DNA of 64,000 nt, from assembly GCA_964187785.1 (NCBI GenBank), contig OZ076409.1:72418001-72482000 (forward strand), written 5' to 3'. The stretch comes from Amphiscolops sp. MND2022 (taxonomy: Eukaryota). The notes under the pieces were generated by a model that saw only the letters and a list, made by a program, of their open reading frames with translations, did no database searches and was not told the origin of the DNA. The position numbers and the translations under genes were made by a program. Below, one piece after another: positions 5,501 through 46,312 of the stretch (position 1 is the stretch's first letter; each line of letters opens with the position of its first letter).

Positions 5501-7340
5501 AATTCACATGCACGCCATTTGGCGTATAAGAATAGCACAGAAAACTATCATATACCGATCAACTCTACTCCTATTGTAGATTATTAGAACTTTGTTTTGA
5601 ATGAATTTTGATGGATAATAAAAAATTTTGAACCCTCCGAAAATGGGCTAAAATTACACGAAAAAAAATGACCCTAAAATTTTAAAATGTCTAAAAATCA
5701 TCAAAACCACAGCTTCTTGAGGTTCTATCAACTCCACATGGCCCACAGAGTATGCCAAACCAGGTTTTACGCGTTTTTGAGCAAAATTTAGGAAAGCCGA
5801 TTTTTTTGAGGAAGAAAAACATATCATTTCCTAAAAAACTTCAAATGCACGCCATTTGGCGTATAACAATAGCACAGAAAACTATCACATACCAATCAAC
5901 TCTACTCTTTTTGTAGATTACCAGAAGTTTGCTTAGAATAACTTTTGATGAATATTTATAAATTTTAAACCCTCCTAATATGGGCCAAAATCACACGGAA
6001 AAATTGACCCTAAGTATTAAAATGTCAGATATTCATCAAAACCCCAGCTTCTTGGCGTTCTATCATTTCCATATGACTTTCAGAGTATACCAAACAAGTT
6101 ATTAACATTGGGCGATAATTAAAAAGACCAATTTTATTCTGAAGAAAACCATAATATGTTCAATATAAGAAGTGAATCATTCCACATATATACCCTGTCT
6201 AATATTCTAAATAAGCAAAAAAATATATACTTGATGTTTTTTGAATGTGAGCTTCATAAAAGGTTGAGATGTGATAATACGTAAATGGATTCCAAGTTTC
6301 ATCGAAAAGTCAATGGAATACGTCCAATCAACTTCAATCTTAACAATTCGATAACAAAAAACACTTAAGTACATTCCATCTCCCTATCGGGGAGATGAGA
6401 ATGTACTTTTCAAAAACTAAAAACTTAGATCTTTCTATCTTTTGTAACACTTACTGTAACAGCTGAAATGATGAAAGAATAATTATTCTTCTAATAACTT
6501 CAAGATTTTTTGCTTCACCTTTTATTTGTGCAGAACAAAACCATAAGACATACATATTTTTCGCTGTTAAGTTCAACTGTATTACCCAGTGAACAAAGGT
6601 ATGACAGGAAGATTACAAGTTGTCTCAAAACTTTCCCGCCTTCCAAAATCATGAAACGTCTACACAACCAAGATAGTAAAGGAATGAATGTGGAATGCAT
6701 CATTTTAGTTAAAATAAATAACGTGTAGAACTTACCTTTATCTGAAGATGACGTTGATTTATGATCTTTAGAGGATAGTTCAATTTTTGACCATAATAGT
6801 GCGAAACTAATTATTATATGAATAATGGCGTGGAAAGCGTTCAGAAATTGCAGTATTTTCGATTGGAGCATGTATGCGTGGGTTCCTTTGGTGGCATTAG
6901 CTTAGTGTACATGATGGAAGTTTTCGATCTATTATGATAAAATTTACTCACAAGTCTTTGTTTTTCCTATTTTTTTATGCCATTAAGTACATTCATTCTA
7001 TCCCCTTCTCTGGGAATGTACGTTTGCCAAATGACTGTCATCCAAATTTTGCATTCGCGAAGAGTTTAAATACATAAACACGTCTTTAGCGTTTCCAAAT
7101 CACAACCGATTAACATTTTTTAAAATTTTTTTATGAAAATTGATAATTTGTTTTGATTTTGGTATCTTCTACTTTTATCATCCATCATAACAAGCACCTT
7201 ACCATGTCTCTCGCTTGTCTTCATTTTACAACGCCACATAGCGTTCCGACTCGCACCGTCTGTGGGCATGCCGAGGCATGCCCTTCGACGACGTATGCCA
7301 ACTACTTTTTATATCTACACCCGATTGCGGTAGCGGCTAG
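2570..7340 (+). mobile_element. Unit U2, family L (4771 bp) with divergent first ~400 bp
   Basis: Starts GTGGGGGGGGATATATCTCC, then joins the S/L body. 4 x ~337 bp repeats, GTACATTC hairpin 6367-6408, ends CTAG. Confidence 0.85.
4811..6150 (+). repeat. Internal tandem repeat, 4 x ~337 bp
   Basis: ATAccATTTCCTAAAA motif at 4811, 5148, 5484, 5821. Confidence 0.9.
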
Positions 7341-11309: not shown

Positions 11310-14300
11310 GTGGGCGGGGGTAATTCCCCAACAAAAAAATCGGCCGGCGGGTCGGGTCCTGCCGGCCGTCCAAAATCAAAATCCTCCTAGTAGAAAACGG
11401 CCGGTCAAACGAGCTATTTTTTTATTTAACCGTTAGAATTTGGGTTTAGATTGCATGCGGCCATGAAATGGCCATACGAATGGAAGTTCCTGCTGACGTT
11501 TTGCGATTGAAACACTTTATAAAAAGTTATGGCCAATTTGTCATTCACCTAGAAGGGCAAAATGAGGAAAATTTTAACAAAGTCGCTGATAACTCAAAAT
11601 GTAATAATTTTTGGACTTTGACAGTGAAACAAGCTTGGAACTGTCATTTCGTGGCTGTGGCATTGCACTGAACACAAAAGATGTAAAGTTTTCACATTTT
11701 TTGAAAATTCGACATTTTTGAATTTTTTTTCACTACTATCAGTACACTATATGTCAAAAACGCCTCTGAAAAAAATTTTTATTTGCTTAAAATTAGAAAC
11801 CTTGGTATCCATGGTTTCCGTCAGTACCTACTCGCTGCCAAACGCTCAACAGTTTGCATCCAATGTGAAAATATAATTTTTTTCGAGGTCATAGGTGTTT
11901 CACAAGGATTTCTCAACTTAGTATCTATTTACAAATTGGTCATTTTGAACACATTATTTTCATCGAAGCGTGTCAGATACCACCCTAATGCTCACGAATG
12001 GGCCTACTGGCAACGTTGGAACCATTTTTAGTAATAGAAAGTATTAAAAAAATATTTTCACCCGGTCTTCAGTCATTTTTCAGACATTCGGTACTTAACT
12101 TAGAAAAATTTCGCATCAAAAACCCATATTTGGTAGGGTCGAAATTTGAAATTCAGTTTTTTATGCAAAATTATTAACTCTGACGTAACCAGTGGAGCCC
12201 ATGATACTCAAAAACACGATTGGGACTGGTATCAGTGGCTCCAATAACATATGAGCCGCGATAAGACGTTATTCAGAGCAAACGCTCTAAATCGAAGTAA
12301 ACATCTCTGAAGCCTGGGATCACAGTGAAATGTGATATCACCAAAAGTTTACTCTTTTTTGTCAATCACTATGTACACAGAGTGCGTAGGGTGAGTTTCA
12401 GGACTATAATGAGGTTTTTGAAGTAATCGCGCTGCTCAAGGGGTGGTATGAGACTATTTTTTCCCATATACTACTACATTTCCATAAATTTGCAGTCCAT
12501 TGTCTTGGAAAGATAACTTCACAAAAACAATTTTTCTACTCTATTCAGTTATTAGAATAAAGTTGAACACTGTGGTTGATCAGAAATGCTCAATTCTTTT
12601 GGTTTTTAAAAAAAATTCCTTCGCATTCGTTACATTTGTGGAAGGAAGGTTATCAGTAGCTCCAAAAAAAACGAAATTTAGCACGAACAGACATGCAACG
12701 ATGCAAAGCAAAAACGTTTTTACAACTTCCGACGTCATTATTTTACCCAAGAAGTTCGAGAATATCATTCGCAATGCTGTCATTCGCTATATATACGATC
12801 GCGGTCAATTTACAAACATTTAGATTTCATTGTTCTGCTTGAAAACCAATTTTTGTCAGGTCGAAATTTTAAATTTTGCCTGGGGAGCAATACCCTTCAC
12901 GCTGAAGTAAACAGTGGGGCCCAAGTTACTCAAAAACAAGAAAGAGACTGCTACAATATGTCCTAATAACATATGGACCACGATAGTACGTTTTTCACAC
13001 AAAAAACTCTCATCCGAAGTAAATATGTTGAAAGCTTTTAATCACCGTGAGAAGTGATTTCATTAAAAAATAACTCTTTTTTGTCAATCACTATTTACAC
13101 AGAATTTGTAAAGTTAGTTTGAGTCATGAAATGAGGCTTTACCGTAATATGGGTTGCTCAAGGTGTTATATAAGACAAAAACTTCCTCTTTTCTACTAGC
13201 TTCTTCAAATATTTCAACCCTTTGTCACAATAAGTTAATATTCAAAATCTCTTTGAAATGTATCTTTATGTTGGGGTGAAGTCTAAGAACAATAACTATG
13301 ATCGAAGAATGCTAGTACTGGTGTTTGAACCATGTCCGGATGAACAAATCACAAAATCATCAAAAAATTGTTCCCTTTTTTGGTTATTTTGGCAGTACTA
13401 AAAATGTTAGCTGATAAATAATTTTTTCGATGGCACCATTGGATTCCTCTCAAAAAGTTGGTTATATGACCTGTGTAATAACCCCGTATCTTTTCAATTT
13501 AAATATATTTAAAAAGCCAACTATTTTGACCAAAATCCTAAAAATCATACCATTTCCTAAAAATTTTCAAATGCACCCCATTTGAGGTATAAGATAAGCA
13601 CAGAAAACTATAATATACCGATCAACTCTACTCCCATTGTAGATTATTAGAATTTTGTTTAGAATGAATTTTGATGGATATTAAAAAAATTTTGAACCCT
13701 CCAAAAATGGGCCAAAATTACACGAAAAAATTGACCTTAAAATACCAAAATGTCAAAAAATCATCAAAACCCAGGCTTCTTGGGGTTCTATCAACTCCGC
13801 GTGGTCCACAGAGTATGCTAAAACAGGTTTTACCCGTTTTTGAGCAATATGTGAAAAAGCCGACATTTTTGGGAAAGAAAAACATACCATTTCCTAAAAA
13901 AATTCAAATGCACGTCATTTGCCGTATTAGAATAGCACAGAAAACTATCACATACCAATCAACTCTACTTTCATTGCAGATGAACAGAATTTTGTTTAGA
14001 ATAAATTTTACCGGATAATAAAAAAATTTGAATCCTTCAAAAATGGGCCAAAATTACACGAAAAAATGAACCTTAAAAATTTAAAATGTCAAAAAATCAT
14101 CAAAACAACAGCTTATGGGGTTCTATCAACTCCACGAGGTCCACAGAGTATGCTAAAACAGGTTTTACCCGTTTTTGAGCAATATGTGAAAAAGCCGACA
14201 TTTTTGGGAAAGAAAAACATACCATTTCCTAAAAAAATTCAAATGCACGCCATTTGCCGTATGAAAATAGCACAGAAAACTATCACATACCAATCAACTC

Positions 14301-16070
14301 TACTTTCATTGCAGATGAACAGAATTTTGTTTAGAATAAATTTTACCGGATAATAAAAAAATTTGATTCCTTCTAAAATGGGCCAAAATTACACAAAAAA
14401 ATGGACCTTAAAATTTTAAAATGTCAAAAAATCATCAAAACCACGGCTTCTTGGGGTTCTATCAACTCCACGTGGTCCACAGAGTATGCTTAACCCGGTT
14501 TTACCCATCTTTGAGCAAAATGTGAAAATACCGACATTTTTGGAAAAGAAAAACATGCCATTTTCTAATAAATTTCAAATGCACGCCATTTGCTGTATGA
14601 GAATAACACAGAAAGCTGTCACATACCGATCAACTCTACTTCCATTGTAGATTATCAGAAGTTTGTTTAGAATAAATTTTGATGGATAATAAAAAAAATT
14701 GAATCCATCAAAAATGGGCCAAAATTACACGAAAAAATTGACCTTAAAATATCAAAATGTCAAAAAATCATCAAAACCACAGTTTCTTGGCGTTCTATCA
14801 ACTCCATATGATACCAAACCAGGTACTGCCAATCGTTTGAGTTATAATAAAAAAACCTCTTTTTTGGCAAGAATTCCATACCATAAATAATAATCATGTT
14901 CCATATAAGAAGCGAATCATTTCAGATATATACCCTGTTCATTTTTTTAATATTACCGATTATTAATTTAATAGATGTTTTGAATGTGAGCTTCCTAAAA
15001 GGTTCAGGTGTGATGATACGTAAAAAGAACCTTAGTTTCATCGAAATCTCAATTGAATATGTCCAATCTTAACCATCAGATAACAAGAAACACTTAAGTA
15101 CATTCCATCTCCCCATCGGGGGAGATGAGAATGTACTTTCGAGAAGCCAAATACGTCCAACATTCAAACTTTTGTAACTTTGTATGTAACTCCTGAAACG
15201 AAGAAGGAATAAAATTGTTTCTGGTACATACATGAGTCTTTACTTCAGCTTCTATTTCTGCTGAACAAAACCATTCGACTCTTTTGCCGGAGTTAAGATC
15301 GATTGTATTACCCAGTGAACAAAGGCATGACTGAAAACGTTTACTACTTTGTTCATAATTTTCCGGCCTTCCGAAATGATGAAACGTCCACATAACTAAG
15401 ATAGCAAGTGAATGACTGCGAAATGCACCTTATTAGATGAGGTAAATAACGTGTAAAACTCTCCTTTATCCTAACATGAGGTTGAGTAATGATCATTTGA
15501 GAATAGTTTGATATGTGAATACAATAGTATAAAACAAGTACATTTTATATGAATAACGCCGTGGAAAGCGTTCAGAAAGGACAGTAGGCTTGTTTGGAAC
15601 ATGTATGTGTGGTGTCCCTTGGTGGCGTTCGCTTAGTGTATATGTCGAGGGGTATTCGAGTTGTTATGATAGAATTTACACACAAGTCTTTTGTTTTTTG
15701 GTTTTTTTAAAATGTCGTTAAGTACCTGCATTCTATCCCCTTCTCAGAGATGACGTGAAGTTACGTTTGCTAAATAAATGTCATCGAAAGATCACACTCC
15801 CGACGAAATTAACTATCTTAACACGTGTTTAGAATTTTAAATAAACAACCGTATAAGATTTTTATATTTCATTGAGTTTGATGAAGTCTTTTGTTCTTCT
15901 AACTACTATTTCAACCAATACACATATCCGTTACCATATCACATGTCTCCATTAGTACAACGCCACATAGCGTTGCGACGCCCACAGTCTGTGGGCATGC
16001 CGAGGCATGCCCTTCGACGACGTATGGCAAATGGAGCCATGCCCGCCGTCTTTACGGCGGTAGCGGCTAG
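11310..16070 (+). mobile_element. Unit U5, family L (4761 bp)
   Basis: Internal repeats, hairpin 15096-15138, ends CCGCCGT-cttt-ACGGCGG-tagcgg-CTAG. Near-identical to U11. Confidence 0.85.
13547..14880 (+). repeat. Internal tandem repeat, 4 x ~336 bp
   Basis: Same monomer as 4811-6150. ORFs ending at 14018 and 14353 repeat the same translation. Confidence 0.9.
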
Positions 16071-22121: not shown

Positions 22122-24307
22122 GTGGAGGTTATTTTATAATAATTAAAGTGTTTTTTTCCGGAGTTTGTGGCTTTGGAAAAAACAAAAGGCGAGAAATTGG
22201 GCACTCCGGGCTGAACCGTATACACTCAAAATTCGCCCAATATTTATACGATCTCGAAACCCAGCCGTACGATTTGGCTGAAAATTTGCATGCGGCTAAA
22301 AAATCAGATTCTAAGAACTATTTCCTGCTGACATTTTTTTGAAATTTTTGTGTACGTTTCCCCCCCGCCCCCTAAAGGGGTCAATTTTCCCCAATTTTGC
22401 ACTTATGAGCCAAATTCTCAAAACTGGTGGATCTGAGCGTATTCCCGGCGGGGACAACTTTTAACGCGCGCTCCTCAGTAGACCTTTTTGACTTTTAACT
22501 TTGGTGGTACGTTCACCCCCCGAGGAGGAAATGGCGTTTTTGTGACTTCCGGTCGAGGCTTTTTTCACCCAAAAAATAGAATTAAGCCAATTTTGAGCAG
22601 GAAGGAGTGGATTTAAAGTGCCTGTACCCTGCTAAAAATTTGTTGGGCTTGTAGCGATATATCTCATACCAAGTCTGGTTTTCACCCCCAAACCCCCCTT
22701 GGGACCAAAATTCACCCAAACTTTTTTTTTCTCTGTTTGTAGTTTTTTTTGCAAAATGTCGTCATTTCCATGGGTAAGGAGTTGAATTAGGGGCTCCTAA
22801 TAGGGTACCAATGTTCAAGTACACTTGCAGTGCAACTGAGTGACCCTTTTGGGGCCTCTCCTGTGTTCGGCGAGGACCGGAAGTGGTGTAAACCCCCCTT
22901 TTTTGACGTTTGTTGACCTTGAGACTCGCGCTTAGATGACGTTTATGTCGCGCAAATCCTACAAACCAGTATTAGGATGACATGCTAGCCTACTAGAGAG
23001 CACTAAGGGAAACTGTACTATACCGGAAGTAACCCCCCGTGACCGGAAGTTGTCATTTTTGACCGGAAATGGTCCAAAACATAGCGTAAAAGCAGTTTTC
23101 ATTGCTTTTAAAGTCAACTTATTACCTTTTCAGTCTGCGCGAGCTTGTCTTCAGATTCGTTTTTGTTGTCCGTGCACACTACAACAAATATACATCTGTA
23201 GAACTTTTGCTATAATATCGTCGGAGAGAGAAATAACGGGTTTTCGGAATTTTTTTCAAAAATGTTTGTCTATATCTATCATTTTTACCCAACGTTATTC
23301 AACAGTAGAACCACAGGGGTTAGTATCTGCCAAAATATATGCCTAACAAAACCACTCGTCCCATTGGTTGCAGTTTGAGCGTTCTAGCTTTGCCTGGTCA
23401 CAAGTTGAGGGACTTCAAAAAGTTTCAAATTTTTTTGGAAATTTTTTTTTAAACGTCACGTCTCCCAAAGTTAAGAATTTTCCACACAACTAGGATTGCA
23501 AGAGAATGCACATGGTAAGACCTATAAATCGAGAGAAAAATTCCGTTCAGAACGTCTCTTTATCGTTACGTGACGTTAAAAGATGTTGCTTTGAATGTGA
23601 ATTTGATAATGCGTCGAGAAGTAAAAGAGTGTGAATGGATCCTATGTCTCGACAAATACTCATCGCAATACATACGATGAACCCCAATTACCCTCACTTT
23701 CAGTTGGCTAGTACATCAGCGTCTTCCAAGGACCGTTTACCTATTTAAAAATTGTCAAATTCATTATTAATATCAGTTAGCAAGAAATATTTGAGTACAT
23801 TGTCATCTCTCCCCATCGGGTGAGATGAGAATGTTCTTGCTAAAAGTCAAGTACTACGGCCCATTTTTGTTTTATTGCGACGTTTTCTGTGCCTTAGCAC
23901 AAGGATACTTTTATGTCATCTCACTTTTGTTATACAATCTGACTTGTTGTTATAAAATTCTCGTCATTACTTTACCTAAACTTACTACCATGCATCTTTA
24001 ACGTCAAAGCCAAATTCATTTAGACGCCCACCATTCCGTAGGTATGCCGAGGTATGCCTTTCGAAGAAGTATGGCAAAACACAAACGGGCAAATGAAAAG
24101 GGCTGAAATTCAGAAACAGTCACAAACAATTTTGACTATTTGACCGATGGTAGGTTTTTATATGGAACTTACACATCACTGACATTTCAAAACATTCCAG
24201 CTGACGCCCACTTACAAACATCAACGCCCACGGTCCGTGGGCATGCCGAGGCATGCCCTTCGACGACGTATGGCAAATACCTTTTACGACGTCCCAACTT
24301 TCCCTAG
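22122..24307 (+). mobile_element. Unit U9, 2186 bp family with doubled tail
   Basis: Starts GTGGAGGTTAT, ACCGGAAGT-rich body. Relic tail hairpin 24040-24059 and intact one 24239-24258. Confidence 0.8.
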
Positions 24308-26483
24308 GTGGAGGTTATTATATATCAATTAAAGTGTTTTTTTTCCGGAGTTTGTGGCTTTGGAAAAAACAAAAGGCGAGAAATTGGGCACTCCAGGCTG
24401 AACCTAAAAACACCCTAAAATTGGCCCGATTTTTTTACGATCTCGAAACCCAGCCGTACGATTTGGCTGAAAATTTGCATGTGGCTTCTAATCAATGAGT
24501 AATGAAAAAGTGTAGGAGTGACTTTTCCTGAAAAAATTGTTTTTGTTGCACTTTTTGCGCAATTTTTGACCGATTGTTGCGTTTTTTATGTCACTTTTGA
24601 CTTTTCAGGCAAAAAACTCATGGATGCTTTGATCCTAGCGCATCAAATGTTTCGACCAAAAAGTTGCAGCATTTTCTTTTACGTATGTTGAGAAAATTTG
24701 GTTGCCATCGTATTACCCCCCGCTGAGATAGAGGGGAACTTCCGGTGGAATTTAGGACCCTAAAAACGAGGACATCCTAAATTTCAGCATGAAGCGGTAG
24801 TTTTAGCGTGCTCATACCCTGCTGAAACTTTGTTGGCCATAATGAGATAGTCATGATATCATCTGTTCAGTTCACCCCCCATCACCCCCTGGACCGGAAG
24901 TGAACTTTTTTGTGCACTATCATACCGGAAGTCTCCATATTCATCGTTAAGCAGTCCTTGTACGAGCAACTACCGGGACATCAAAATTGAAGTACCACCT
25001 GAGGTCAACATAGTGACTACGTGTTGTCCAGTCATAGGTTCCGCTATGACCGGAAATGGGGTCAAAAGCCCCTATTTTGGTTGTTTTTTTAACAATTTTA
25101 CTAGTGTTTGGTCCACATTCAAGTCGCGTAAGTCAATTGAATCAGTGTGAGCAAAAACTGTATGTTCACTGCGTAGACGTAACTGACACTGACAGATACC
25201 GGAAGTAACCCCCCGTGACCGGAAGTTGTCATTTTCGACCGGAAATGGTCCAAAATGTAGCGTAAAACTAGTTTTTTAGTGCTTTTTAAAGTCAACTTAT
25301 TACTTTTTCAATCTCCGCGAGCTTGTATTCAGGTTCGTTTTTGTTACCCGTGCACTTTGCAACAAATATACATCTGTAAACTTTTCTCTATAATATCGTC
25401 GGATAGAGAAATAACGTGTTTTTGGGACTTTTTTCAAAAATATTAGACTATATCTGTCATTTTTACTCAAAGTTTTTCAACAGTACAACCACAGTGGTTA
25501 GTCTCTGCCCAAATTTTTGCCTAACAAAACTATTTGGCCCATTGGCTTCAGTTTGAGCGTTCCAGCTTTGCGTGATCATAAGCTAAAGGACTTGAAAAAT
25601 TTTCAAACTTTTTTCAAAAAAAACTTCTCACATTCATATCTCCCAAAGTGAAGAAACTTCCACACAATTAGGATTGCAAGTGGATGCATGTGGCAAGCCC
25701 TATAATTGAAGAGAAAAATGCCGCTTAGAACGTCTCTTTATCGTAAATTGACGTTAACGTATGGTGTTTGAATGAGAGCTTGATAAGAGGTCGAGAAGTC
25801 AAAGTGTGTAAATGGAACGTATGTCTCGTCGAAAACTCACCGGAATTTATGCAATGAACCCCAATTGTTTTAAATTGCAGTTGCCTACTGCAACAACGTC
25901 TTTTTGGTACATTTACCCATTTTCATAAGTGTCAAAATTATTTTTGAATTCAGTTAGCAAGAAACACTTGAGTACATTTTCATCTCTCCCAAGCGGGTGA
26001 GATGAGAATGTTCTTGCTAAATGCCAGGTACTACGGCCCACTTTTGTTTTAATGCGACGCATTCTCTGCTTTAGCACATAGATAGTTTATTTTGCGATTT
26101 TTTGTATACTCTCTGACTTGTTATTATAAACTTCTCTTCATTACTTTATATGAATTTACATCCATAATACGTTATCGTCAACGCCACATACTTTTAGGCG
26201 CCCACCATTCCGTAGGTATGTCGAGGCATACCTTTCGATTACCTATGTCAAAACGCAAACGCGATAAAAAGTGCTGAAATTCTGAAACAGTGACAAACAA
26301 TTTTGATTATTTGACATATGGTAGGTTTTTATATGAAACGTACACATCACTGACATTTCACAACATTCCAGCTGACGCCCACATACCAATGTCAACGCCC
26401 ACCGTCCGTGGGCATGCCGAGGCATGCCCTTCGACGACGTATGCCAATTTTGTATATCTAAACCCAATTGCGGTAGCCGCTAG
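24308..26483 (+). mobile_element. Unit U10, 2176 bp, same family as U9
   Basis: Same head as U9, colinear but diverged body. Relic hairpin 26214-26233, intact hairpin 26410-26429. Confidence 0.8.
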
Positions 26484-26506
26484 GTGGGCGGGGGTAATTC
26501 CCCAAC

Positions 26507-28496
26507 CTAGCTGCTACCGCGGTAGTGACCGCGGGCTAACGCTATATTTGGCATACGTCGTCGAAGGGCATGCCTCGGCATGCCCACAGACTGTGGGCGT
26601 CGCTACACTATGTGGCGTTGTAATGAGGACACTGCGAGGTCGTAGGGGGTGGGTGGCGATGGTAACGGTAAATAAAGGTAAAGTTAAACTTCCTAAAGGT
26701 TACAAATATGTTTTATATCATTTATTTGTACTTTTTGTTTGCAAAAAAAAACGAAAATTGTTATGAAAATCATAGGTTCTTATCAAACACTGAATCCAAT
26801 TGTTAGCTGACCTGATGGAAGGAACTCACGACATGATCGAATCACGAAGTGAAGCATCGACAGCAATATCCTATAAACAAATGGTATTTTTGTTGACAGT
26901 TTTTTGATGTGACAGCCTTCCCAAGTTGACACAAGGCCAACTTGAAAGGCTATCACAATGTTCAGTTAACAGATACTTGAAAAAAATGCAAAACTTGTCC
27001 AACCAGGATCGTAGAAAAAGCACATGTCAGCATTGTGAATGGCATTTTCAATCATTTTGGGTCCGTAAGGTCGCGTTAGAAGTATTTAAAGAGATTTTAG
27101 GCGCAACCATTGCGATTCTATCCCAGCAAAATCGCGTATTTTTTAGTTTCAGTTTTTTTTCCTGCTACAAATGTAACACATTTGAAAGGAGTTATTTCGG
27201 AAAACGAAAGAGATGAAAGTTTCTGATCAACCACAGGGTTCATCTGTATTGTAACCTTTGAATAAAGTAATTGAAAGTATTTTGTCAAGTTAGTTTTTCC
27301 AGATAATGGGCTAAAATTTTTGGAAAATACAGTAGTATATGGGAAAAAAATGTCTCATACACCCCCTTGAGCAGGCCGATTACTTCAAAAACCTCATTAT
27401 AGTGCTGAAACTCATCCTATGCACTCTGTGTACATAGTGATTGACGAAAATGAGTAATTTTTTGCTGAAATTACATTTCACTGTGATCCCAGGCTTGCGA
27501 GATGTTTAACTCAATTGAGACGTATTGCTCAAAATAACGTCTTATCGCGGCTCTTATGATATAGGAGCCATTGGTACCAGTCCCAATCGTATTTTTGAGT
27601 ATCATGGAGCCCACTGGTTACGTCAGAGTAAAAAATTTTGCTTTAATAGCTGAATTTCAATTTTCGACCTGACAAAAAATGGGTATTTGGTTCGAAAACA
27701 TTCTAAGTTAAGTTCCGAATGTCTGAAAAATGACTGAAGACCGGGTGAAAAAATTTTTTTAATACTTTTTCTTACTATAAATGGTTCCTACGTTGCCAGT
27801 AGGACCGTTCGTGATCATTCAGACTATATCCGACATGCCTGGACCAAAATTTTATGTTTAAAATGACCACTATGTAATTTAATACTAAATCATGAATACC
27901 TTGTGAAACGCTTATGACCTCGAAAAAATTTTTTATTTCACATTGGATGCAAACTGTTGGGTGTTTGGCTGCGAGTAGGTTCCGACAGAAACCATGGATA
28001 CCAAGGTTTCCAATTTAAAGCAAATAAAAATTTTTTTCTGAGGTGTTTTTGACATATGGGGTACTGATAGTAGTGAAAAAAATTTCAAAAATGTCGAATT
28101 TTCAAAAAACGTAAAAACTTTACATCTTTTGTGTTCAGTCCAATGCCCCAGCCACGAAATGAAGGTTCCAAGCTTGTTTCACAGTCAAAGTCCAAAAATT
28201 AACACATTTTGAGTTATCAGCGACTTTGTTAAAATTTTCCTCATTTTACCCTTCTAGGTGAATGACAAATCGGCCATAACTTTTTATAAAACATTTACAT
28301 CGCAAAACGTCAGCAGGAACTTCGTCTCGTATGGCCATTTCAGGGCCGCATGCAAAAAATGGTGAAATTCGTATGGTTAAATAAAAAAATAGCTCGTTTG
28401 ACATGCCGTTTTCTACTAGGAGGATTTTGATTTTGGACGGCCGGCAGGACCCGACCCGCCGGCCGAATTTTTTGTTGGGGAATTACCCCCGCCCAC
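26507..28496 (-). mobile_element. Unit U12, complete family S element in reverse orientation (1990 bp)
   Basis: Minus strand reads GTGGGCGGGGGTAATTCCCC...GTAGCAGCTAG. Closely related to U1/U21. Confidence 0.92.
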
Positions 28497-30708
28497 TAAA
28501 AAATCGGCCGGCGGGTCGGGTCCTGCCGGCCGTCCAAAATCAAAATCCTCCTAGTAGAAAACGGCCGGTCAAACGAGCTATTTTTTTATTTAACCGTTAG
28601 AATTTGGGTTTAGATTGCATGCGGCCATGAAATGGCCATACGAATGGAAGTTCCTGCTGACGTTTTGCGATTGAAACACTTTATAAAAAGTTATGGCCAA
28701 TTTGTCATTCACCTAGAAGGGCAAAATGAGGAAAATTTTAACAAAGTCACTGATAACTCAAAATGTAATAATTTTTGGACTTTGACAGTGAAACAAGCTT
28801 GGAACTGTCATTTCGTGGCTGTGGCATTGCACTGAACACAAAAGATGTAAAGTTTTCACATTTTTTGAAAATTCGACATTTTTGAATTTTTTTTCACTAC
28901 TATCAGTACACTATATGTCAAAAACGCCTCTGATAAAAATTTTTATTTGCTTAAAATTAGAAACCTTGGTATCCATGGTTTCCGTCAGTACCTACTCGCT
29001 GCCAAACGCTCAACAGTTTGCATCCAATGTGAAAATATAATTTTTTTCGAGGTCATAGGTGTTTCACAAGGATTTCTCAACTTAGTATCTATTTACAAAT
29101 TGGTCATTTTGAACACATTATTTTCATCGAAGCGTGTCAGATACCACCCTAATGCTCACGAATGGGCCTACTGGCAACGTTGGAACCATTTTTAGTAATA
29201 GAAAGTATTAAAAAAATATTTTCACCCGGTCTTCAGTCATTTTTCAGACATTCGGTACTTAACTTAGAAAAATTTCGCATCAAAAACCCATATTTGGTAG
29301 GGTCGAAATTTGAAATTCAGTTTTTTATGCAAAATTATTAACTCTGACGTAACCAGTGGAGCCCATGATACTCAAAAACACGATTGGGACTGGTATCAGT
29401 GGCTCCAATAACATATGAGCCGCGATAAGACGTTATTCAGAGCAAACGCTCTAAATCGAAGTAAACATCTCTGAAGCCTGGGATCACAGTGAAATGTGAT
29501 ATCACCAAAAGTTTACTCTTTTTTGTCAATCACTATGTACACAGAGTGCGTAGGGTGAGTTTCAGGACTATAATGAGGTTTTTGAAGTAATCGCGCTGCT
29601 CAAGGGGTGGTATGAGACTATTTTTTCCCATATACTACTACATTTCCATAAATTTGCAGTCCATTGTCTTGGAAAGATAACTTCACAAAAACAATTTTTC
29701 TACTCTATTCAGTTATTAGAATAAAGTTGAACACTGTGGTTGATCAGAAATGCTCAATTCTTTTGGTTTTTAAAAAAATTCCTTCGCATTCGTTACATTT
29801 GTGGAAGGAAGGTTATCAGTAGCTCCAAAAAAACGAAATTTAGCACGAACAGACATGCAACGATGCAAAGCAAAAACGTTTTTACAACTTCCGACGTCAT
29901 TATTTTACCCAAGAAGTTCGAAAATATCATTCGCAATGCTGTCATTCGCTATATATACGCTCGCGGTCAATTTACAAACATTTAGATTTCATTGTTCTGC
30001 TTGAAAACCAATTTTTGTCAGGTCGAAATTTTAAATTTTGCCTGGGGAGCAATACCCTTCACGCTGAAGTAAACAGTGGGGCCCAAGTTACTCAAAAACA
30101 AGAAAGAGACTGCTACAATATGTCCTAATAACATATGGACCACGATAGTACGTTTTTCACACAAAAAACTCTCATCCGAAGTAAATATGTTGAAAGCTTT
30201 TAATCACCGTGAGAAGTGATTTCATCAAAAAATAACTCTTTTTTGTCAATCACTGTTTACACAGAATTTGTAAAGTTAGTTTGAGTCATGAAATGAGGCT
30301 TTACCGTAATATGGGTTGCTCAAGGTGTTATATAAGACAAAAACTTCCTCTTTTCTACTAGCTTCTTCAAATATTTCAACCCTTTGTCACAATAAGTTAA
30401 TATTCAAAATCTCTTTGAAATGTATCTTTATGTTGGGGTGAAGTCTAAGAACAATAACTATGATCGAAGAATGCTAGTACTGGTGTTTGAACCATGTCCG
30501 GATGAACAAATCACAAAATCATCAAAAAATTGTTCCCTTTTTTGGTTATTTTGGCAGTACTAAAAATGTTAGCCGATAAATAATTTTTTCGATGGCACCA
30601 TTGGATTCCTCTCAAAAAGTTGGTTATATGACCTGTGTAATAACCCCGTATCTTTTCAATTTAAATATATTTAAAAAGCCAACTATTTTGACCAAAATCC
30701 TAAAAATC

Positions 30709-32040
30709 ATACCATTTCCTAAAAATTTTCAAATGCACCCCATTTGACGTATAAGATAAGCACAGAAAACTATCATATACCGATCAACTCTACTCCTATT
30801 GTAGATTATTAGAATTTTGTTTAGAATGAATTTTGATGAATATTAAAAAAATTTTGAACCCTCCAAAAATGGGCCAAAATTACACGAAAAAATTGACCTT
30901 AAAATACCAAAATGTCAAAAAATCATCAAAACCCAGGCTTCTTGGGGTTCTATCAACTCCGCGTGGTCCACAGAGTATGCTAAAACAGGTTTTACCCGTT
31001 TTTGAGCAATATGTGAAAAAACCGACATTTTTGGGAAAGAAAAACATACCATTTCCTAAAAAAATTCAAATGCACGTCATTTGCCGTATTGGAATAGCAC
31101 AGAAAACTATCACATACCAATCAACTCTACTTTCATTGCAGATGAACAGAATTTTGTTTAGAATAAATTTTACCGGATAATAAAAAAATTTGAATACTTC
31201 AAAAATGGGCCAAAAATACACGAAAAAATGGACCTTAAAAATTAAAATGTCAAAAAATCATCAAAACAACAGCTTCTTGGGGTTCTATCAACTCCACGAG
31301 GTCCACAGAGTATGCTAAAACAGGTTTTACCCGTTTTTGAGCAATATGTGAAAAAGCCGACATTTTTGGGAAAGAAAAACATACCATTTCCTAAAAAAAT
31401 TCAAATGCACGCCATTTGCCGTATGAAAATAGCACAGAAAACTATCACATACCAATCAACTCTACTTTCATTGCAGATGAACAGAATTTTGTTTAGAATA
31501 AACTTTACCGGATAATAAAAAAATTTGATTCCTTCTAAAATGGGCCAAAATTACACGAAAAAATGGACCTTAAAATTTTAAAATGTCAAAAAATCATCAA
31601 AACCACGGCTTCTTGGGGTTCTATCAACTCCACGTGGTCCACAGAGTATGCTTAACCCGGTTTTACCCATCTTTGAGCAAAATGTGAAAATACCGACATT
31701 TTTGGAAAAGAAAAACATGCCATTTTCTAATAAATTTCAAATGCACGCCATTTGCTGTATGAGAATAACACAGAAAGCTGTCACATACCGATCAACTCTA
31801 CTTCCATTGTAGATTATCAGAAGTTTGTTTAGAATAAATTTTGAAGGATAATAAAAAAATTTGAATCCATCAAAAATGGGCCAAAATTACACGAAAAAAT
31901 TGACCTTAAAATATCAAAATGTCAAAAAATCATCAAAACCACAATTTCTTGGCGTTCTATCAACTCCATATGATACCAAACCAGGTACTGCCAATCGTTT
32001 GAGTTATAATAAAAAAACGTCTTTTTTGGCAAGAATTCCA
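30709..32040 (+). repeat. Internal tandem repeat, 4 x ~336 bp
   Basis: Same monomer and copy number as in U5. Confidence 0.9.
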
Positions 32041-33232
32041 TACCATAAATAATAATCATGTTCCATATAAGAAGCGAATCATTTCAGATATATACCCTGT
32101 TCATTTTTTTAATATTACCGATTATTAATTTTATAGATGTTTTGAATGTGAGCTTCCTAAAAGGTTCAGGTGTGATGATACGTAAATAGAACCTTAGTTT
32201 CATCGAAATCTCAATTGAATATGTCCAATCTTAACCATCAGATAACAAGAAACACTTAAGTACATTCCATCTCCCCATCGGGGGAGATGAGAATGTACTT
32301 TCGAGAAGCCAAATACGTCCAACATTCAAACTTTTGTAACTTTGTATGTAACTCCTGAAACGAAGAAGGAATAAAATTGTTTCTGGTACATACATGAGTC
32401 TTTACTTCAGCTTCTATTTCTGCTGAACAAAACCATTCGACTCTTTTACCGGAGTTAAGATCGATTGTTTTACCCAGTGAACAAAGGCATGACTGAAAAC
32501 GTTTACTACTTTGTTCATAATTTTCCGGCCTTCCGAAATGATGAAACGTCCACATAACTAAGATAGCAAGTGAATGACTGCGAAATGCACCTTATTAGAT
32601 GAGGTAAATAACGTGTAAAACTCTCCTTTATCCTAACATGAGGTTGAGTAATGATCATTTGAGAATAGTTTGATATGTGAATACAATAGTATAAAACAAG
32701 TACATTTTATATGAATAACGCCGTGGAAAGCGTTCAGAAAGGACAGTAGGCTTGTTTGGAACATGTATGTGTGGTGTCCCTTGGTGGCGTTCGCTTAGTG
32801 TATATGTCGAGGGGTATTCGAGTTGTTATGATAGAATTTACACACAAGTCTTTTGTTTTTTGGTTTTTTTACAATGTCGTTAAGTACCTGCATTCTATCC
32901 CCTTCTCAGAGATGACGTGAAGTTACGTTTGCTAAATAAATGTCATCGAAAGATCACACTCCCGACGAAATTAACTATCTTAACACGTGTTTAGAATTTT
33001 AAATAAACAACCGTATAAGATTTTTATATTTCATTGAGTTTGATGAAGTCTTTTGTTCTTCTCACTACTATTTCAACCAATACACATATCCGTTACCATA
33101 TCACATGTCTCCATTAGTACAACGCCACATAGCGTTCCGACGCCCACAGTCTGTGGGCATGCCGAGGCATGCCCTTCGACGACGTATGGCAAATGGAGCC
33201 ATGCCCGCCGTCTTTACGGCGGTAGCGGCTAG

Positions 33233-35214
33233 GTGGGCGGGGGTAATTCCCCTTCAAAAAATTCGGCCGGCGGGTTGGGTCCTGCCGGACGTCAAATAGT
33301 GTGAAACATCCAGTAGGAAACGGCGACATAAATCAGCGATTTTAAAATTTAACCGTTAGAATTCGGACTTGGAGTGCATGCGGCCCCAAAATGCCCATAC
33401 GAATCGAAGTCCCTGCTGACGTTAAGCGATAAAAACACTTTATAAAAAGTTATGGCCCATTTTACGTTCACTTAGAGAGGTAAAATGAGGAAAATTCTAA
33501 CAAAGTTGCTGATAACTCAAAATACATTAATTTTTGGACTTTGACTGTGAAACAAGCTTGGAACCTTCATTTCGTGGCTGTGGCATTGCACTGAACACAA
33601 AAGATGTAAAGTTTTTACATTTGTTGAAAATTCGACATTTTTGAAATTGTTTTCACTACTATCAGTACCCCATATGTCAAAAACGCCTCAGAAAAATATT
33701 TTTATTTGCTTTAACTTGGAAACCTTGGTATCCATGGTTTCTGTCGGAACCTACTCGCAGCCAAACACCCAACAGTTTGCATCCAATGTGAAAATAAAAA
33801 TTTTTTCGGGGTCATAAGCGTTTCACAAGGATTTCTCAACTTAGTATTAATTTACAAATTGGTCATTTTGAACACACTATTTTCATCGAGGCTTGTCGGC
33901 TATAGCCCTAATGTTCTAGAACGGTCCCACTGGCAACGTAGGAACCATTTATAGTAATAGAAAGTTTTAAAAAAATATTTTCACCCGGTCTTCAGTCATT
34001 TTTCAGTCATTCGGAACTTAACTTAGAAAAATTTCGACCAAAATACCCATTTTTTGTCAGGTCGAAAATTCAAAATCAGATTTTTAAGCAAAATTATTAA
34101 CTCTGACGTAACCCATGGGGCCCATGATACTCAAAACAACGATTGACACTGGTATCAATGGCTCCAATAACATATGAGTCGCGATAAGACGTTATTTTGA
34201 GCAATACGTCTCAATTGAGGTAAAGATCTCGCAAGCCAGCGATCACTGTAAAATGCGATTTCATCAAAAATTTACCCATATTTGTCAATCACTATGTGCA
34301 CAGAATGCGTAGGGTGCGTTTCAGCATTATAATGAGGTTTTTGAAGGCATCGAGTTGCTCAAGGGGTGGTATGAGACATTTTTGTCCCATATACTACTGT
34401 ATTTTCCAAAATTTTTAGCCCAATATCTGGAAATACAAACTTGACAAAATACTTTCAACTACTTTATTCAAAGGTTACATTATAGATGAACACTGTGGTT
34501 GATCAGAAACTTTCATCTCTTTCGTTTTCCGAAATATTTCCCTTCGCATGTGTTATATTTGTAGCAGAAAAAAATCAAAACTGAAAAGTACGCTATTTTG
34601 GTAATATAGAATCGCAATGGTTGTGCCTAAAAACTCTTTAAACACTTCTAACGCAACCTTACGCACCCAAAACGATCGAAAATGCTATTCACAATGGTGA
34701 CATGTGCTCTTTCTACGATCCTGGCTGAACAAGGTTTGCATATTTTTCAAGTACCTGTCAGCTGAATCTTGTGATAGCCTTTTAAGTTGGCCTTGTGTCA
34801 ACTTGGGAAGGCTATCACATCAAACAACCATCAACAAAAATAGTTTTTGTTTATTGGATAATACAGTCGATACGTTTTTTCGTGATTCTATACTACCGTT
34901 AGTACATTCCATCAGGTCACCTTACGATTGCATTCACTCTTTGATAAAAACATATGAACTCAAAGTCACATTTATATACTTTTGGCCCAACAAAATTATC
35001 AAAAACATCTAAAACTTATAAAATAAAGTCTTTCACATTTTTACGTTTCAAGTTTCAACCGTTATTAAGCCAATCAACGTCCTAGAGCCACATCCTGTCA
35101 TACTGTACAACGCCACATAGTGTTGCGACGTGCACAGTCTGTGGGCATGCCGAGGCATGCCCTTCGACGACGTATGCCGAATACCGCGGGCCTACGCCCG
35201 CGCTCCCCGGCTAG
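33233..35214 (+). mobile_element. Unit U13, family S (1982 bp)
   Basis: Head as U4, tail as U3. Confidence 0.85.
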
Positions 35215-36285
35215 GTGGTCAAGGGGGATGCCCATCAGAAAATATTGCGAGGCCGGGGAGGGTCCCGAGAGCCGAGCACATTCTATCAATTCCTACCTTC
35301 AGGATTGCGAAGTATTTTAACCGATCTCGAAATTCACCCGTAGGATTTGTCTGAAACTTTGCATGTGGCTTAATCTCCAAAATTTAAGAACTTTTTTCCT
35401 CTGACGTTTTTCCAGGAAAATTCATTTTGTAAGGTTTTTTTGCGTTTTTTTGGTTTTTTTCATCTTTTTTCATCTTTGATTAATCAATGACCGAATCAAA
35501 GGCCATTTTCACCATGAAGGAAAACCCGTAGCGGCAAAGTGCACTTTTATGAAAATCATCAACGGTCAACGGTCTTTCGAACGGTCCAAAAAAATTTCCC
35601 CCCCGGGGGGGACCAAAGTGCCGAAAAGTGCCAAATTTATTTTTTTGACTGAATCACTTCGATCAAATTGATGATTTGAGCAGCCGGAACGGTCCGCACG
35701 GTCTCGGACAATAAGGTCAAAAATTAGCAGCATCCAATGGGGGTTCCAAAAATGTAATTTGTTCACCTGTAGGAGACATCAGAAAAAAGTTGATTTTTTT
35801 GAGTTTTGGCATTATGACTGATCGGATGATAAATCATTGCATCACGTTGAGTTGCATTTGGTGCAGCAAACGAAGCAGCTGCAGCGAACTTGAGACTGCT
35901 TAGGGGGCTGGGGTTTACTATCTGTAACAAGCAAAATAACCCTTGGGCATAAGGTATGCCAAAAAATGCCTCAAAGTGTTTATTAAGTTTTTGCAAATCG
36001 GCTAGCAAAATTCATTGTCACCGGTGTTCCGAGGGTTGCGCAGCATCTCGCGGGAACAACGGTGCTTGTTTCGAACGCAAAACCCAACATACCTCTTTGG
36101 TGACGTGACGGAGGTCACCATTGGCCTTTTTCAAGAGTGTGATGATATTTTTATCGTTGAATTGTGATGAACATACACAAAAGATTTAGCGTGGGATATT
36201 TGTTTGTGTCATACTTCAGTAACAAACTTTCAACCGTTTTGTTTAGGCCTCTACCTAGCAGTGCTCTAAATCGCTCCATCGCTAG
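35215..36285 (+). mobile_element. Unit U14, unique 1071 bp element lacking the GGCATGCC tail
   Basis: Bounded by CTAGGTGG on both sides. Has the head hairpin (CGGG-gagggt-CCCG) and the CCGTAGGATTTGTCTGAAACTTTGCATG block. Confidence 0.7.
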
Positions 36286-41549: not shown

Positions 41550-44500
41550 GTGGGCGGGGGTAATTCCCCAACTAAAAAATCGGCCGGCGGGTAGGGTCCT
41601 GCCGGCCGTCCAAAATCAAAAATATACTAGTAGAAAACGGCCGGTCAAACGAGCTATTTTTTTATTTAACCGTTAGAATTTGGGTTTAGATTGCATGCGG
41701 CCATAAAATGGCCATACGAATCGAAGTTCCTGCTGACGTTTTGCGATTGAAACACTTTATAAAAAGTTATGGCCAATTTGTCAGTCACCTAGAAGGGCAA
41801 AATGAGGAAAATTTTAACAAAGTCGCTAATAACTCAAAATGTGTTATTTTTTGGACTTTGACTGTGAAACAAGCTTGGAACCTTCATTTCGTGGCTGTGG
41901 CATTGCACTGAACGCAAAAGATGTAAAGTTTTTACATTTTTTGAAAATTTGACATTTTTGAAATTTTTTTCACTACTATCAGTACCATATATGTCAAAAA
42001 CACCTCAGAAAAAAAATTTTATTTGCTTTAACTTGGAAACCTTGGTATCCATGGTTTCTGTCGGAACCTACTCGCAACCAAACAACCAACAGTTTGCATC
42101 CAATGTGAAAATAAAAAATTTTTCTGGGTCATAAGCGTTTCACAAGGATTTCTCAACTTAGTATTAATTTACAAAATGGTCATCTTGAACACAATATTTT
42201 CATCGAGGCTTGTCGGCTATAGCCTTAATGTTCTAGAACGGTCCCACTGGCAACGTAGGAACCATTTATAGTAATAGAAAGTTTAAAAAATATATTTTCA
42301 CCCTGTCTTCAGTCATTTTTCAGTCATTCGGAACTTAACTTAGAAAAATTTCGACCAAAATACCCATTTTTTGACAGATCGAAAATTCAAATTCAACTTT
42401 TTAAGCAAAATTAGTAACTCTGACGTAACCAGTGGGACTCATGATACTCAAAAACACGATTGGGACTGGTACCAATGGCTCCAATATCATATGAGCCGCG
42501 ATAAGACGTTATTTTGAGCAATACGTCTCAATTGAGGGAAACATCTCGCAAGCCTGGGATCACAGTTAAAAGTGATTTCGTCAAAAATTTACTCTTTTTC
42601 GTCAATCACTATGTACACAGAGTGCGTAGGGTGAGTTTCAGCACTATAATGCGGTTTTTGAAGGAATCGGTCTGCTCAAGGGGTGGTATGAGACATTTTT
42701 TTTGCATGTAGTACTATATTTCTCAAAACTTTTAGCCCAATATCTCGAAAAGCTCACTTCGCAAATTACTTTCAGTTACTCTATTCGAAGCTTAGAATAT
42801 ATATGAACAGTGTGGTTGATCAGAAACTCTTGACTATTTTGTTTTTGGAAAAAAACTGCCTTGCATGTGTTACATTAGTGGCAGGAAAAATACCAGTAGC
42901 TCCAAAAATCACAATTTTGGACGGACAGACCTGCAATGATGCAAAGCAAAAACGTTTCAACAACTTCTGGCGCCACTTTTTTTACCCAAGAGGTTCGAAA
43001 TTACTATTAACAATGCTGACATTCGCTATAAATAAGATCGAGGTCAATTTACTAACACTTAGGTTATACATTTATATCTGAGAAACCATTCTTTGTCAGG
43101 TCGCAATTTTAAATTTAGTTTGGGAAGCAATACTTTTCACTCTGAAGCAAACCGTTGGGCCCAAATTACTCAAAAACTACAAAAAGACTGTCACCATATG
43201 CCCTAATAGCATATGAGATTCGACCGTATGTTTTTAACACAAAAACTCTCATCCGAAGTAAACATGTTGAAAGCCTTGAATCACCGTGAGAAATGATTTC
43301 ATCAAAAAATATTCCTTTTTCGTCAATCTTTATCTACACAGAACACGTTGTGTCATTTTCAGCCGTGAAATGAGCTTCTACCGTAATATGGGTTGCTCAA
43401 GGTGTTGTATAAGACAAAAACTTCCTCTTTTCTACTATCTTCTTCAAATATTTCAACCCTTTGTCACAAGAAGTTAATATTCAAAATCTCTTTGAAATGT
43501 TTCTTTAGGTTGGGGTGAAGTGTTAGAACAATAATTATGATCGAAGAATGATAGTATTGGTGTTTGGACCATGTCCGGATGAACAAATTGCAAAATCATG
43601 AAAAATTTCTTACCATTTTTGGTCATTTTGTCAGTACTAAAAATGTTAGCTGAAAAAGAATTTTTTTGATGGCACCATTGGATTCCTCTCAAAAAGTTGG
43701 TTATATGACCTGTGTAATAACCCCGTATCTTTTCAATTTAAATATATTTAAAAAGCCAACTATTTTGACCAAAATCCTAAAAATCATACCATTTCCTAAA
43801 AATTTTCAAATGCACCCCATTTGACGTATAAGAATAGCACAGAAAACTATCACATACCGATCGACTCTACTTCCATTGTAGATTCCCAGAATTTTGTTTA
43901 GAACAATTTTTGACGGATGCAAAAAAATTTAAACCCTCCAAAAAAGGGCCAAAATTACACGAAAAAATTGACCTTAAAATTTTAAAATGTCGAAAAATCA
44001 TCAAAACCACAGCTTCTTGGGGTTCTATCAACTCCACGTGGTCCACAGAGTATGTTAAAACAAGTTTTACCCGTATTTGAGCAATATGTGAAAAAGCCGA
44101 CTTTTTTGGGAATGAAAAACATACCATTTCCTAAAAAATTTCAAACGCACCCCATTTGACGTATAAGAATAGCACAGAAAACTATCACATACCGATCGAC
44201 TCTACTTCCATTGTAGGTTACCAGAATCTTGTTTAGAACAATTGTTGACGGATGCAAAAAAAAATTTAAACCCTCCAAAAATGGGCCAAAATTACACGAA
44301 AAAATTGACCTTAAATTTTTAAAATGTCAAAAAATCATCAAAACCACAGCTTCTTGGGGTTCTATCAACTCCACGTGGTCCACAGAGTATGCTAAAACAG
44401 GTTTTACATGTTTCTGAGCTATATGTGAAAAAACCGACATTTTGGGGAAGAAAAACATACCATTTCTTAAAAAATTTCAAATGCACGCCATTTGCCGTAT

Positions 44501-46312
44501 GAGAATAGCACAGAAAACTATCACATACCGATCAACTCTACTTCTATTGTAGATTATCAGATTTTTGTTTAGAACAAATTTTTATGGATATAAAAAATTT
44601 TTAAACCCTCCAAAAATGAGCCAAAATAACACGAAAAAATGGACCCTAAATTTTTAAAATGTCAAAAAATTATCCAAACCACAGCTTCTTGGGGTTCTAT
44701 CAGCTCCACGTGGTCCACAGAGTATGCTAAAACAGGTTTTGCCCGTTTTTGAGCAGTATATGAAAAAGCCGACATTTTTGGGGAAGAAAAACATACCATT
44801 TCCTAAATAATTTCAAATGCAGGCAATTTGCCGTATGAGAGTAGCACAGAAAACTATCACACACCGATCAACTCTACTTCTTTTGTAGATTATCAGAATT
44901 ATGTTTAGAGTAAAGTTTTATGGATATGAAAAATTTTTATACCCTCCAAAAATGGGCCAAAATGACACGAAAAAATTGACCTCAAATTTTTAAAATGTCA
45001 AAAAATTATCCAAACCACAGCGTCTTGGCGTTCTATCAACTCCAAATGACCTTCAGAGTATACCAAACCAGGTATTGCCAATCTTTTGAGCAATATTTAA
45101 AAACACCGACTATTTGGCAAGAACACCATAATATGTTCCATATAAGAAGTGAATCATTCCACATATATACCCGGTCTAATATTTCCAAATTAGCGATAAC
45201 ATTTATACATGATGGTTTTTGAAAGTGAGCTTTATAAGAGGTTGAGATGTAATAATACGTAAATGGACCCTAAGTTTCATTGAAATCTCAATGGAATACG
45301 TCCAATCAACTTCAATCCTAACTATTATATAACAAAAAACACTTGAGTACATTCCATCTCCCCATCGAGGGAGATGAGAATGTACTTTTCAAAAGCCAAA
45401 AACTTCGAATTTTAAATCTTTTGTAACATTGTATGTAACTGTTGAAACGATGAACGAATGAAAATGCTTCTAGTACCTTCATCAATTTTTGCTTCAGCTC
45501 CTATTTCTGCAGAACAAAACCAAAAGACACACTTACAGCAGTTAAGTTCGATTGTATAACTCAGTGAGTAAAGGTATGACTGAGGAAGTTCACAAGTTGT
45601 TTCAAAAGTTTCCGGCCTTCCAAAATCATGAAACGTCCACACAACCAAGATAGCAAGTGAAAGAATGCTGAATGCACCTTATTAGATGAGATAAATAATG
45701 TGTGGAACTTGCCATTATCTCAAGATGACGTTGATTTATGATCTTTTAAGGATAGTTCGATATGTGACCACAATAGTGGAAAACTTATTACTATTTGAAG
45801 AACACCGTGGAAAGCGTTCAGAAAGGACAGTATATTTGTTTCGAGCATGCATGCGTGTGTTCCTTTGGTGACGTTAGCTTAGTGTACATGACGGAGGTAT
45901 TCGAGAGATTATGATAGAGTTTACTCACAAGTCTTTGTTTTTTTAAACTTTCTATGCCGTTGAGTACATTCGTAAGGTACATCCATCCCCTTCTCTGGGA
46001 ATGTACGTTTGCCAAATGACTGTCATCCAAAATTCGTAATCCGGACGAGTTTAACTACATAAACATGTGATGAGCGTTTTCAATTCACAACCGAATAACA
46101 TTTTTTTTCTCGAAATTGATGATGGTTTTGATTTTGATGTCTTCTACTTTTATCATCATGCAAACGACCTTACCATGTCTCTCTTCTGTCGTCATTTGTA
46201 CAACGCCACATAGCGTTCCGACGCCCACCGTCTGTGGGCATGCCGAGGCATGCCCTTCGACGACGTATGCCAAATGAGCCATACCCGCACTCTGGAGTGC
46301 GGTAGCGGCTAG
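41550..46312 (+). mobile_element. Unit U18, family L (4763 bp)
   Basis: Internal repeats, hairpin 45346-45386, ends CCGCACTC-tg-GAGTGCGG-tagcgg-CTAG. Confidence 0.85.
43786..45127 (+). repeat. Internal tandem repeat, 4 x ~337 bp
   Basis: Same monomer as the other L units. Confidence 0.9.

Follow-up and report, generated by a model that had tools for sequence, protein, structure and literature searches.

Precise inverted insertion of a Helitron-like unit in a mixed transposon train and its probable link to a Rep-helicase-GIY-YIG lineage

Features of the locus

The window (the whole stretch of 64,000 nucleotides that was analyzed) carries a mixed head-to-tail train of non-coding units, one of which lies complete and inverted within the head of another. 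It contains no N and no open reading frame (ORF) longer than 162 amino acids (aa), and positions 24000-36000 gave no match in Rfam. The main features are as follows, in window coordinates:

579-64000, forward strand: mixed head-to-tail train of non-coding units of 1.07-4.8 kb, belonging to about a dozen families, in which every tail-head junction reads CTAG-GTG.
11310-16070, forward strand: close intact paralog of the host unit (99.27% by sequence comparison).
26484-26506, forward strand: 5' end of the interrupted 4,759-bp host unit (23 bp, GTG plus a short hairpin), preceded by the CTAG tail of a 2,176-bp unit.
26507-28496, reverse strand: inverted, complete, non-autonomous 1,990-bp unit with GTG...CTAG ends, 100% identical to a forward copy at C1:72186383-72188372.
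26507-26620, reverse strand: 3' end of the insert, comprising a palindromic conserved core, a variable terminal hairpin and CTAG (the homologous 3' end has a folding z of -2.9; in three of nine coding elements, the 3' end matches the core at 83-93% identity).
28497-33232, forward strand: rest of the host unit, which contains an internal tandem array of 336-bp repeats at 30703-31968.

The 4.76-kb units contain such a 336-bp tandem array of approximately 3.8 copies, located at 4805-6065, 13541-14806, 43780-45115 and 56499-57757 in addition to the array listed above.

Organization of the mixed trains

Mixed trains extend well outside the window. On C1, units with CTAG-GTG junctions occur from at least 70.45 Mb and related coding elements out to 76.46 Mb, not necessarily as a continuous array, and smaller trains are present on C1, C2, C3, C4, C5, C6, C8 and C10. 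Within the fetched stretches, 55 families (defined at 80% identity) are mixed among 204 units. Short trains of two, three or eight units, some of mixed families, are also embedded in host DNA, between CTAG and a host AT, GT or TT. Such single-orientation trains have an analogy in the cassette arrays of integrons. Genome-wide, one abundant tail motif is followed by GTG[GC] in 1,998 copies and lies off-junction in 58, 5 and 4 others under three search patterns, so that approximately 96% of the counted 3' ends adjoin GTG[GC] and approximately 4% do not. In the fetched trains, the GTG[GC] that follows a 3' end is the head of another unit; in the tail searches, host sites that happen to read GTG[GC] are inseparable from junctions.

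The neighbors of closely related units bear on how trains are built. Among 17 pairs of twins at least 99% alike, none shares its upstream neighbor (0 of 13) or its downstream neighbor (0 of 11), and none of 181 adjacent pairs is at least 99% alike. These data favor successive single-unit insertions over concatemers or the duplication of blocks. The main alternative is that elements insert at any CTNG^DT, the consensus of dispersed sites described below, and that trains form later by selection, rolling-circle concatemers, or unequal crossing-over and conversion instead of junction targeting. It draws on a local clustering of kin, as adjacent pairs belong to the same family in 36 of 181 cases versus 25.6 +/- 3.5 in within-train shuffles, and on a report that rolling-circle amplification gives rise to tandem Helitron arrays (PMC12628747). 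However, the published arrays, as far as the accessible part of that report describes them, consist of truncated copies, whereas the units here are complete; the neighbor counts and the existence of short mixed trains in host DNA likewise speak against it, and this alternative is regarded as unlikely. Ordinary DNA is estimated, by extrapolation from 200 kb, to hold 5.5 million CTNG^DT and approximately 40,000 CTRG^GTG[GC] sites, and the short word alone therefore cannot explain the preference for junctions. Selection against dispersed copies, or recombination within arrays, could make the junction bias look larger than it is.

Several further features of the trains were recorded. Long runs of units with GTGC heads occur at C1:71.56-71.59 Mb (L037-L040) and C1:38.08-38.17 Mb, and successive units in a train tend to share their head class (151 of 181 versus 140 +/- 3.5 in shuffles). 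At C1:71491398-71491545 (L035), a 148-bp mini-unit made up of a head joined to a tail resides in a train as a complete unit and is a possible minimal element. Just upstream of a train segment at C1:71.367 Mb (L045, positions 1500-2900) lies a 296-bp satellite in which GCTAG is followed by G(C/T)TG.

Precision and origin of the inverted insertion

The inverted unit interrupts its host 23 bp into the head and, read on the minus strand, begins with GTGGGCG and finishes with GCAGCTAG; host sequence resumes at 28497. An intact empty-site twin of the host is present on contig C260. With the insert removed, the host matches this twin over 4,759 bp with seven substitutions and no indel (99.85%), and the bases across the insertion point are identical; therefore, no host base was lost or duplicated. 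The preliminary description had proposed the precise movement of one unit, which split the host head without loss, and the twin bears out both points, although the supposedly intact form at 41550 that had served as reference is only 84% identical to the host. The paralog at 11310 has a different base beside the cut position. A genome-wide search with the exact host head returned two matches, one of which is the C260 twin, and the inverted junction has no second occurrence in the genome.

The forward unit that matches the insert perfectly lies 256 kb upstream in the shared array and is the likely donor of a very recent copying event. Identity between the insert and its host unit is only 85%; the insert is therefore not a fold-back of adjacent DNA, and a fold-back inversion is excluded. 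The inversion is thus confirmed as real and precise in the assembly. That it reflects an assembly or template-switch artifact is highly improbable: the insert is identical to another unit of the same repetitive array and orientation flips do occur in assembled trains, but both breakpoints coincide exactly with element termini, removal of the insert restores the host base for base, and the insert is no copy of adjacent DNA. The other flip examined, a train orientation switch at C1:23978672-23978870 considered as a second inversion, spans a run of N and is probably a scaffolding flip.

Element ends and target preference

Comparisons with empty alleles define the ends of the element. Insertion is precise at six sites, namely the focal site, L129 (CTTG^AT), L131, L164, L173 and L156, and matches the empty allele approximately at L160. 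Because L129 bars a shift of the register to the right, and L173 and the focal site bar a shift to the left, the element runs from GTG to CTAG, the first of the three registers initially considered equivalent. Only one head with a first base other than G was found, consistent with a GTG start. All 204 units end in CTAG or CTGG, units being defined by that pattern, and off-junction tails also end in CTAG. Target duplication is absent from the six precise comparisons and the approximate one; the single exception, of 35 bp, is found at L121 (C1:76.23 Mb), where a unit is nested on the same strand 64 nt into another unit's head. This case suggests that the 3' joint is precise and that the 5' joint may be left to repair.

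A 5' hairpin was detected in 23 of 46 head types versus 6.3 +/- 2.3 in shuffles, the families not being independent, and by folding the individual head hairpins are no more stable than shuffled sequences. Tails fold strongly (see the z score above).

Sequences downstream of 67 off-junction 3' ends, still including some duplicates and decayed remnants, were tallied by eye. The first two bases are GT in 29, AT in 25, TT in 9 and other in 4; T occupies position +2 in 63 of 67, and C is never found at +1 (0 of 67). The 58 matches that make up most of this set were retrieved with a base other than G at +3, and a reversed control of the five-match pattern gave two matches. All three patterns miss sites ending in C (the focal site included), and G-nonT-G starts lie outside them. 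A second tail family gave no off-junction match with the pattern used, and the downstream tally thus represents a single tail family.

The upstream side of the target is more constrained. For 57 of the 58 tail loci, 10 kb was fetched and the 5' end could be placed at 24, or 22 after removal of two duplicates, several diverged heads being located by eye. CTNG lies directly upstream at 17 of the 22 independent sites, against a background of approximately 1.2%, as well as at both resolved sites among nine further loci and at all three host-flanked train starts. CTNG^DT, matched by 19 of 24 resolved sites, is therefore the consensus for dispersed targets; its tetranucleotide is of the IS91 type and echoes the 3' terminus of the element itself. 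CTNG is missing from 5 of the 24 tail-selected sites (one reads CCAG), from three sites selected for a non-G upstream base, and from the focal site, which is an off-consensus minority case. TTA^GT recurs at three independent sites: the focal site, L173 and L121.

In an earlier proposal, target choice depends on a downstream sequence, ^GTNGG, that resembles the 5' end of the element, and a recombinase-like GT core or duplication of 2 bp may be involved. Both the focal site and L174, the second off-consensus site of this kind, lack an upstream CTNG and read GTnGGGG downstream, and the dominant target itself reads ^GTG[GC]. Off the junctions, however, GTNGG follows just 1 of the 67 tails, whereas 34 of 67 start with AT or TT; the empty sites at L129 and L164, with ^AT and ^GA among the sequences at the cut, refute a GT core or duplication, and the coding elements encode Rep-helicase proteins with no recombinase detectable by Pfam. 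As a general rule, ^GTNGG is refuted, and the full proposal is now scarcely tenable. It overlooked the main determinant, which lies upstream. What may survive is that the lower strand of a head mimics a head. A tyrosine-recombinase or integron-type 2-bp core was also rejected, since no such gene was found in the coding units and ^AT sites exist.

Nested insertions were encountered at other positions as well. At L156 (C8:25.69 Mb) and L085 (C1:74.377 Mb), two insertions, both at CTNG^GT, lie 13 nt apart in one unit, and one of the two internal positions carries an insertion on C1 as well. At L163, an insertion is found 16 nt after a tail.

Coding elements and their phylogenetic position

Larger train units are the probable source of the mobilizing enzyme. 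Nine units of 12-15 kb, bounded by the same CTAG-GTG junctions, carry intact ORFs of 2,350-2,545 aa, and a further ORF of 2,603 aa is present in another train. The 2,545-aa protein matches Helitron_like_N (PF14214, 33.8 bits) and PIF1 (PF05970, 27.7 bits) above the respective cut-offs; its C-terminal GIY-YIG domain scores below the cut-off (19.2 versus 22.6 bits), whereas homologs score above it. HUH and Y..KY motifs are present in the coding elements, and the helicase weakly resembles that of Helraiser (7LCC, E = 2e-6). The assignment of the system to a Helitron-like class, made beforehand from non-coding units, is thus upheld by the Rep-helicase of the coding partners. The 3' core of the 1,990-bp unit (56-77 bp) is shared with three of the nine coding elements at their 3' ends and occurs internally in a fourth. 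This core is all that the unit has in common with the coding elements, so a specific helper role for any one of them is at most putative.

Variation among the coding elements was also noted. In an abundant family of approximately 2,376 aa (L062-L079, on C1, C2, C6, C8 and C10), the ORFs are intact but the Y..KY motif lacks its second tyrosine. An additional ORF, 277-389 aa long, occurs in several coding elements; the three that were scanned gave no Pfam match.

One search yielded 54 homologs of these proteins; a second, at E<=1e-30, gave 356 clusters. Perkinsus olseni is the sole named organism among the homologs seen, and the ESM Atlas yielded generic Helitron_like_N clusters only. Thirteen metagenome loci containing relatives are too short or too nearly identical to define ends or trains. 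One metagenome contig with a distant relative (L198, positions 1-120) opens with TAG and then a G-rich stretch resembling a head; this lies 1.9 kb upstream of the ORF and could represent a similar 5' end.

In a Rep tree of 50 rows, the clade falls on one side of a long branch with 100/100 support, opposite three HLE1-type and seven HLE2-type rows; these outgroups are few and all from this genome, and long branches were flagged. A helicase tree, composed without HLE1 rows, also separates the clade from HLE2. On this thin sampling, the train-borne proteins appear to lie outside both HLE1 and HLE2. The same genome also contains canonical elements of the HLE1 and Helentron types that are intact (L178-L193), outside trains in the stretches seen.

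Proposed mechanism and its implications

It is considered probable that the focal event represents a precise, duplication-free GTG...CTAG insertion, likely a recent copy of the unit 256 kb away, carried out by the HUH Rep and Pif1 rolling-circle transposase of the larger train elements, which prefers junctions and here likely misfired. On the model of IS91 and Helraiser, a single strand would be nicked after CTNG at the 5' end, this CTNG being supplied by the host or by the tail of the previous unit; the nicked strand would be peeled off, nicked again after the terminal CTAG, and circularized. Re-insertion would take place after CTNG at a target resembling the circle joint. A tail-head junction would therefore resemble the circle junction and provide the best target, and because insertion at a junction regenerates two junctions, trains could grow unit by unit. 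Besides the short word, the enzyme likely needs to bind terminal hairpins close to the cut, and the GIY-YIG domain might, speculatively, trim or nick the second strand.

At the focal site, an enzyme recruited to the junction may have cut the lower strand of the quasi-palindromic host head, before a GT located 23 nt away. Such a misfire is likely because that lower strand reads as a second GT-plus-hairpin, because Helraiser offers a precedent for lower-strand cutting, and because other nested insertions lie near ends (L163, L156 and L121). In the available account, Helraiser cleaves precisely at the junction of its ends and, in vitro, additionally cuts its left end on the lower strand (PMC5876387, PMC4778049). 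Rare misfires of this type reveal target choice and make it testable.

A search of the literature, with subscription papers and Repbase entries outside its scope, found no description of junction-targeting mixed Helitron trains or of a Rep-helicase-GIY-YIG clade. The broader reading is held with moderate confidence: the clade, with its hundreds of homologous clusters, would be a widespread, undescribed and major eukaryotic rolling-circle lineage that cleaves at an IS91-like tetranucleotide, integrates site-specifically at its own tail-head junctions, builds integron-like single-orientation megabase arrays of dozens of families, and is active today. If so, a lineage combining IS91-like tetranucleotide logic with own-junction targeting would link Helitrons and IS91. 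Megabase repeat arrays would be possible without concatemers or unequal crossing-over. The system would also supply a candidate integrase, seamless and site-specific, that is intact, apparently active and carries 1-15 kb of cargo.

Comparison with known systems

The system is Helitron-like with an IS91-style target choice, and it departs from both HLE1 and HLE2 in their defining characters. With HLE1 (Helraiser) it shares Rep-HUH and Pif1 domains, a 3' hairpin followed by CTAG or CTGG (CTRR), the absence of target duplication, and non-autonomous partners with the same termini. It differs in its 5' GTG (TC in HLE1), in targeting CTNG^DT and its own junctions (A^T in HLE1), in an ORF of 2,350-2,600 aa with a C-terminal GIY-YIG-like domain, and in its separate Rep clade.

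HLE2 (Helitron2/Helentron/FoHeli) resembles the system in its large RepHel protein with an extra C-terminal nuclease and in hairpins at both ends. Self-insertions have been reported in Fusarium, and one Sphagnum HLE2 is described with GIY-YIG, according to the portions of these sources consulted. Unlike HLE2, the system shows no T^T target, no AP endonuclease and no DUF6570, and both its Rep and its helicase form separate clades. No family-matched asymmetric terminal inverted repeats were seen in the units, and reading the subterminal palindrome as such a repeat was rejected, the palindrome being, by eye, common to families with differing heads. HELIANO, as far as its accessible description goes, lists 19 genomes with HLEs that remain unclassified, as well as a single HLE2 that bears GIY-YIG; either could overlap with the clade.

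IS91 is described as inserting at CTTG, GTTC, GTCC or CTCG without duplication (PMC13181058, in part), and eukaryotic Helitrons as dinucleotide inserters, unlike the site-specific IS91 (PMC5876387, in part). The likeness to IS91 lies in orientation-specific insertion beside a tetranucleotide (CTTG, CTCG and GTCC were all found here), a similar tetranucleotide at the element's own cleaved end, and the lack of duplication. The IS91 family, however, is prokaryotic and has a small, helicase-less Y2 transposase, whereas the present system is eukaryotic, far larger and equipped with a helicase; mixed trains are not mentioned for IS91 in the parts of its literature consulted.

Replitrons, as outlined in the available portion of their description, are likewise eukaryotic HUH transposons whose insertion at an RG target is orientation-specific, but have no helicase, carry terminal direct repeats, and generate variable duplications in the founding family.

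The Helitrons of Paramecium, a third clade outside HLE1 and HLE2, are comparable in their strand- and sequence-specific insertion, their internal satellites, and a 3' end (CCAA) that resembles the target, as described in sections of the source (PMC13085455). They differ in using telomeric-repeat targets and in ORFs of 9-10 kb, and GIY-YIG is unmentioned in the main-text sections consulted (PMC13085455). In a single Paramecium Hel01 ORF compared by eye, the HUH motif shows the short classical spacing, versus a longer spacing in the clade described here.
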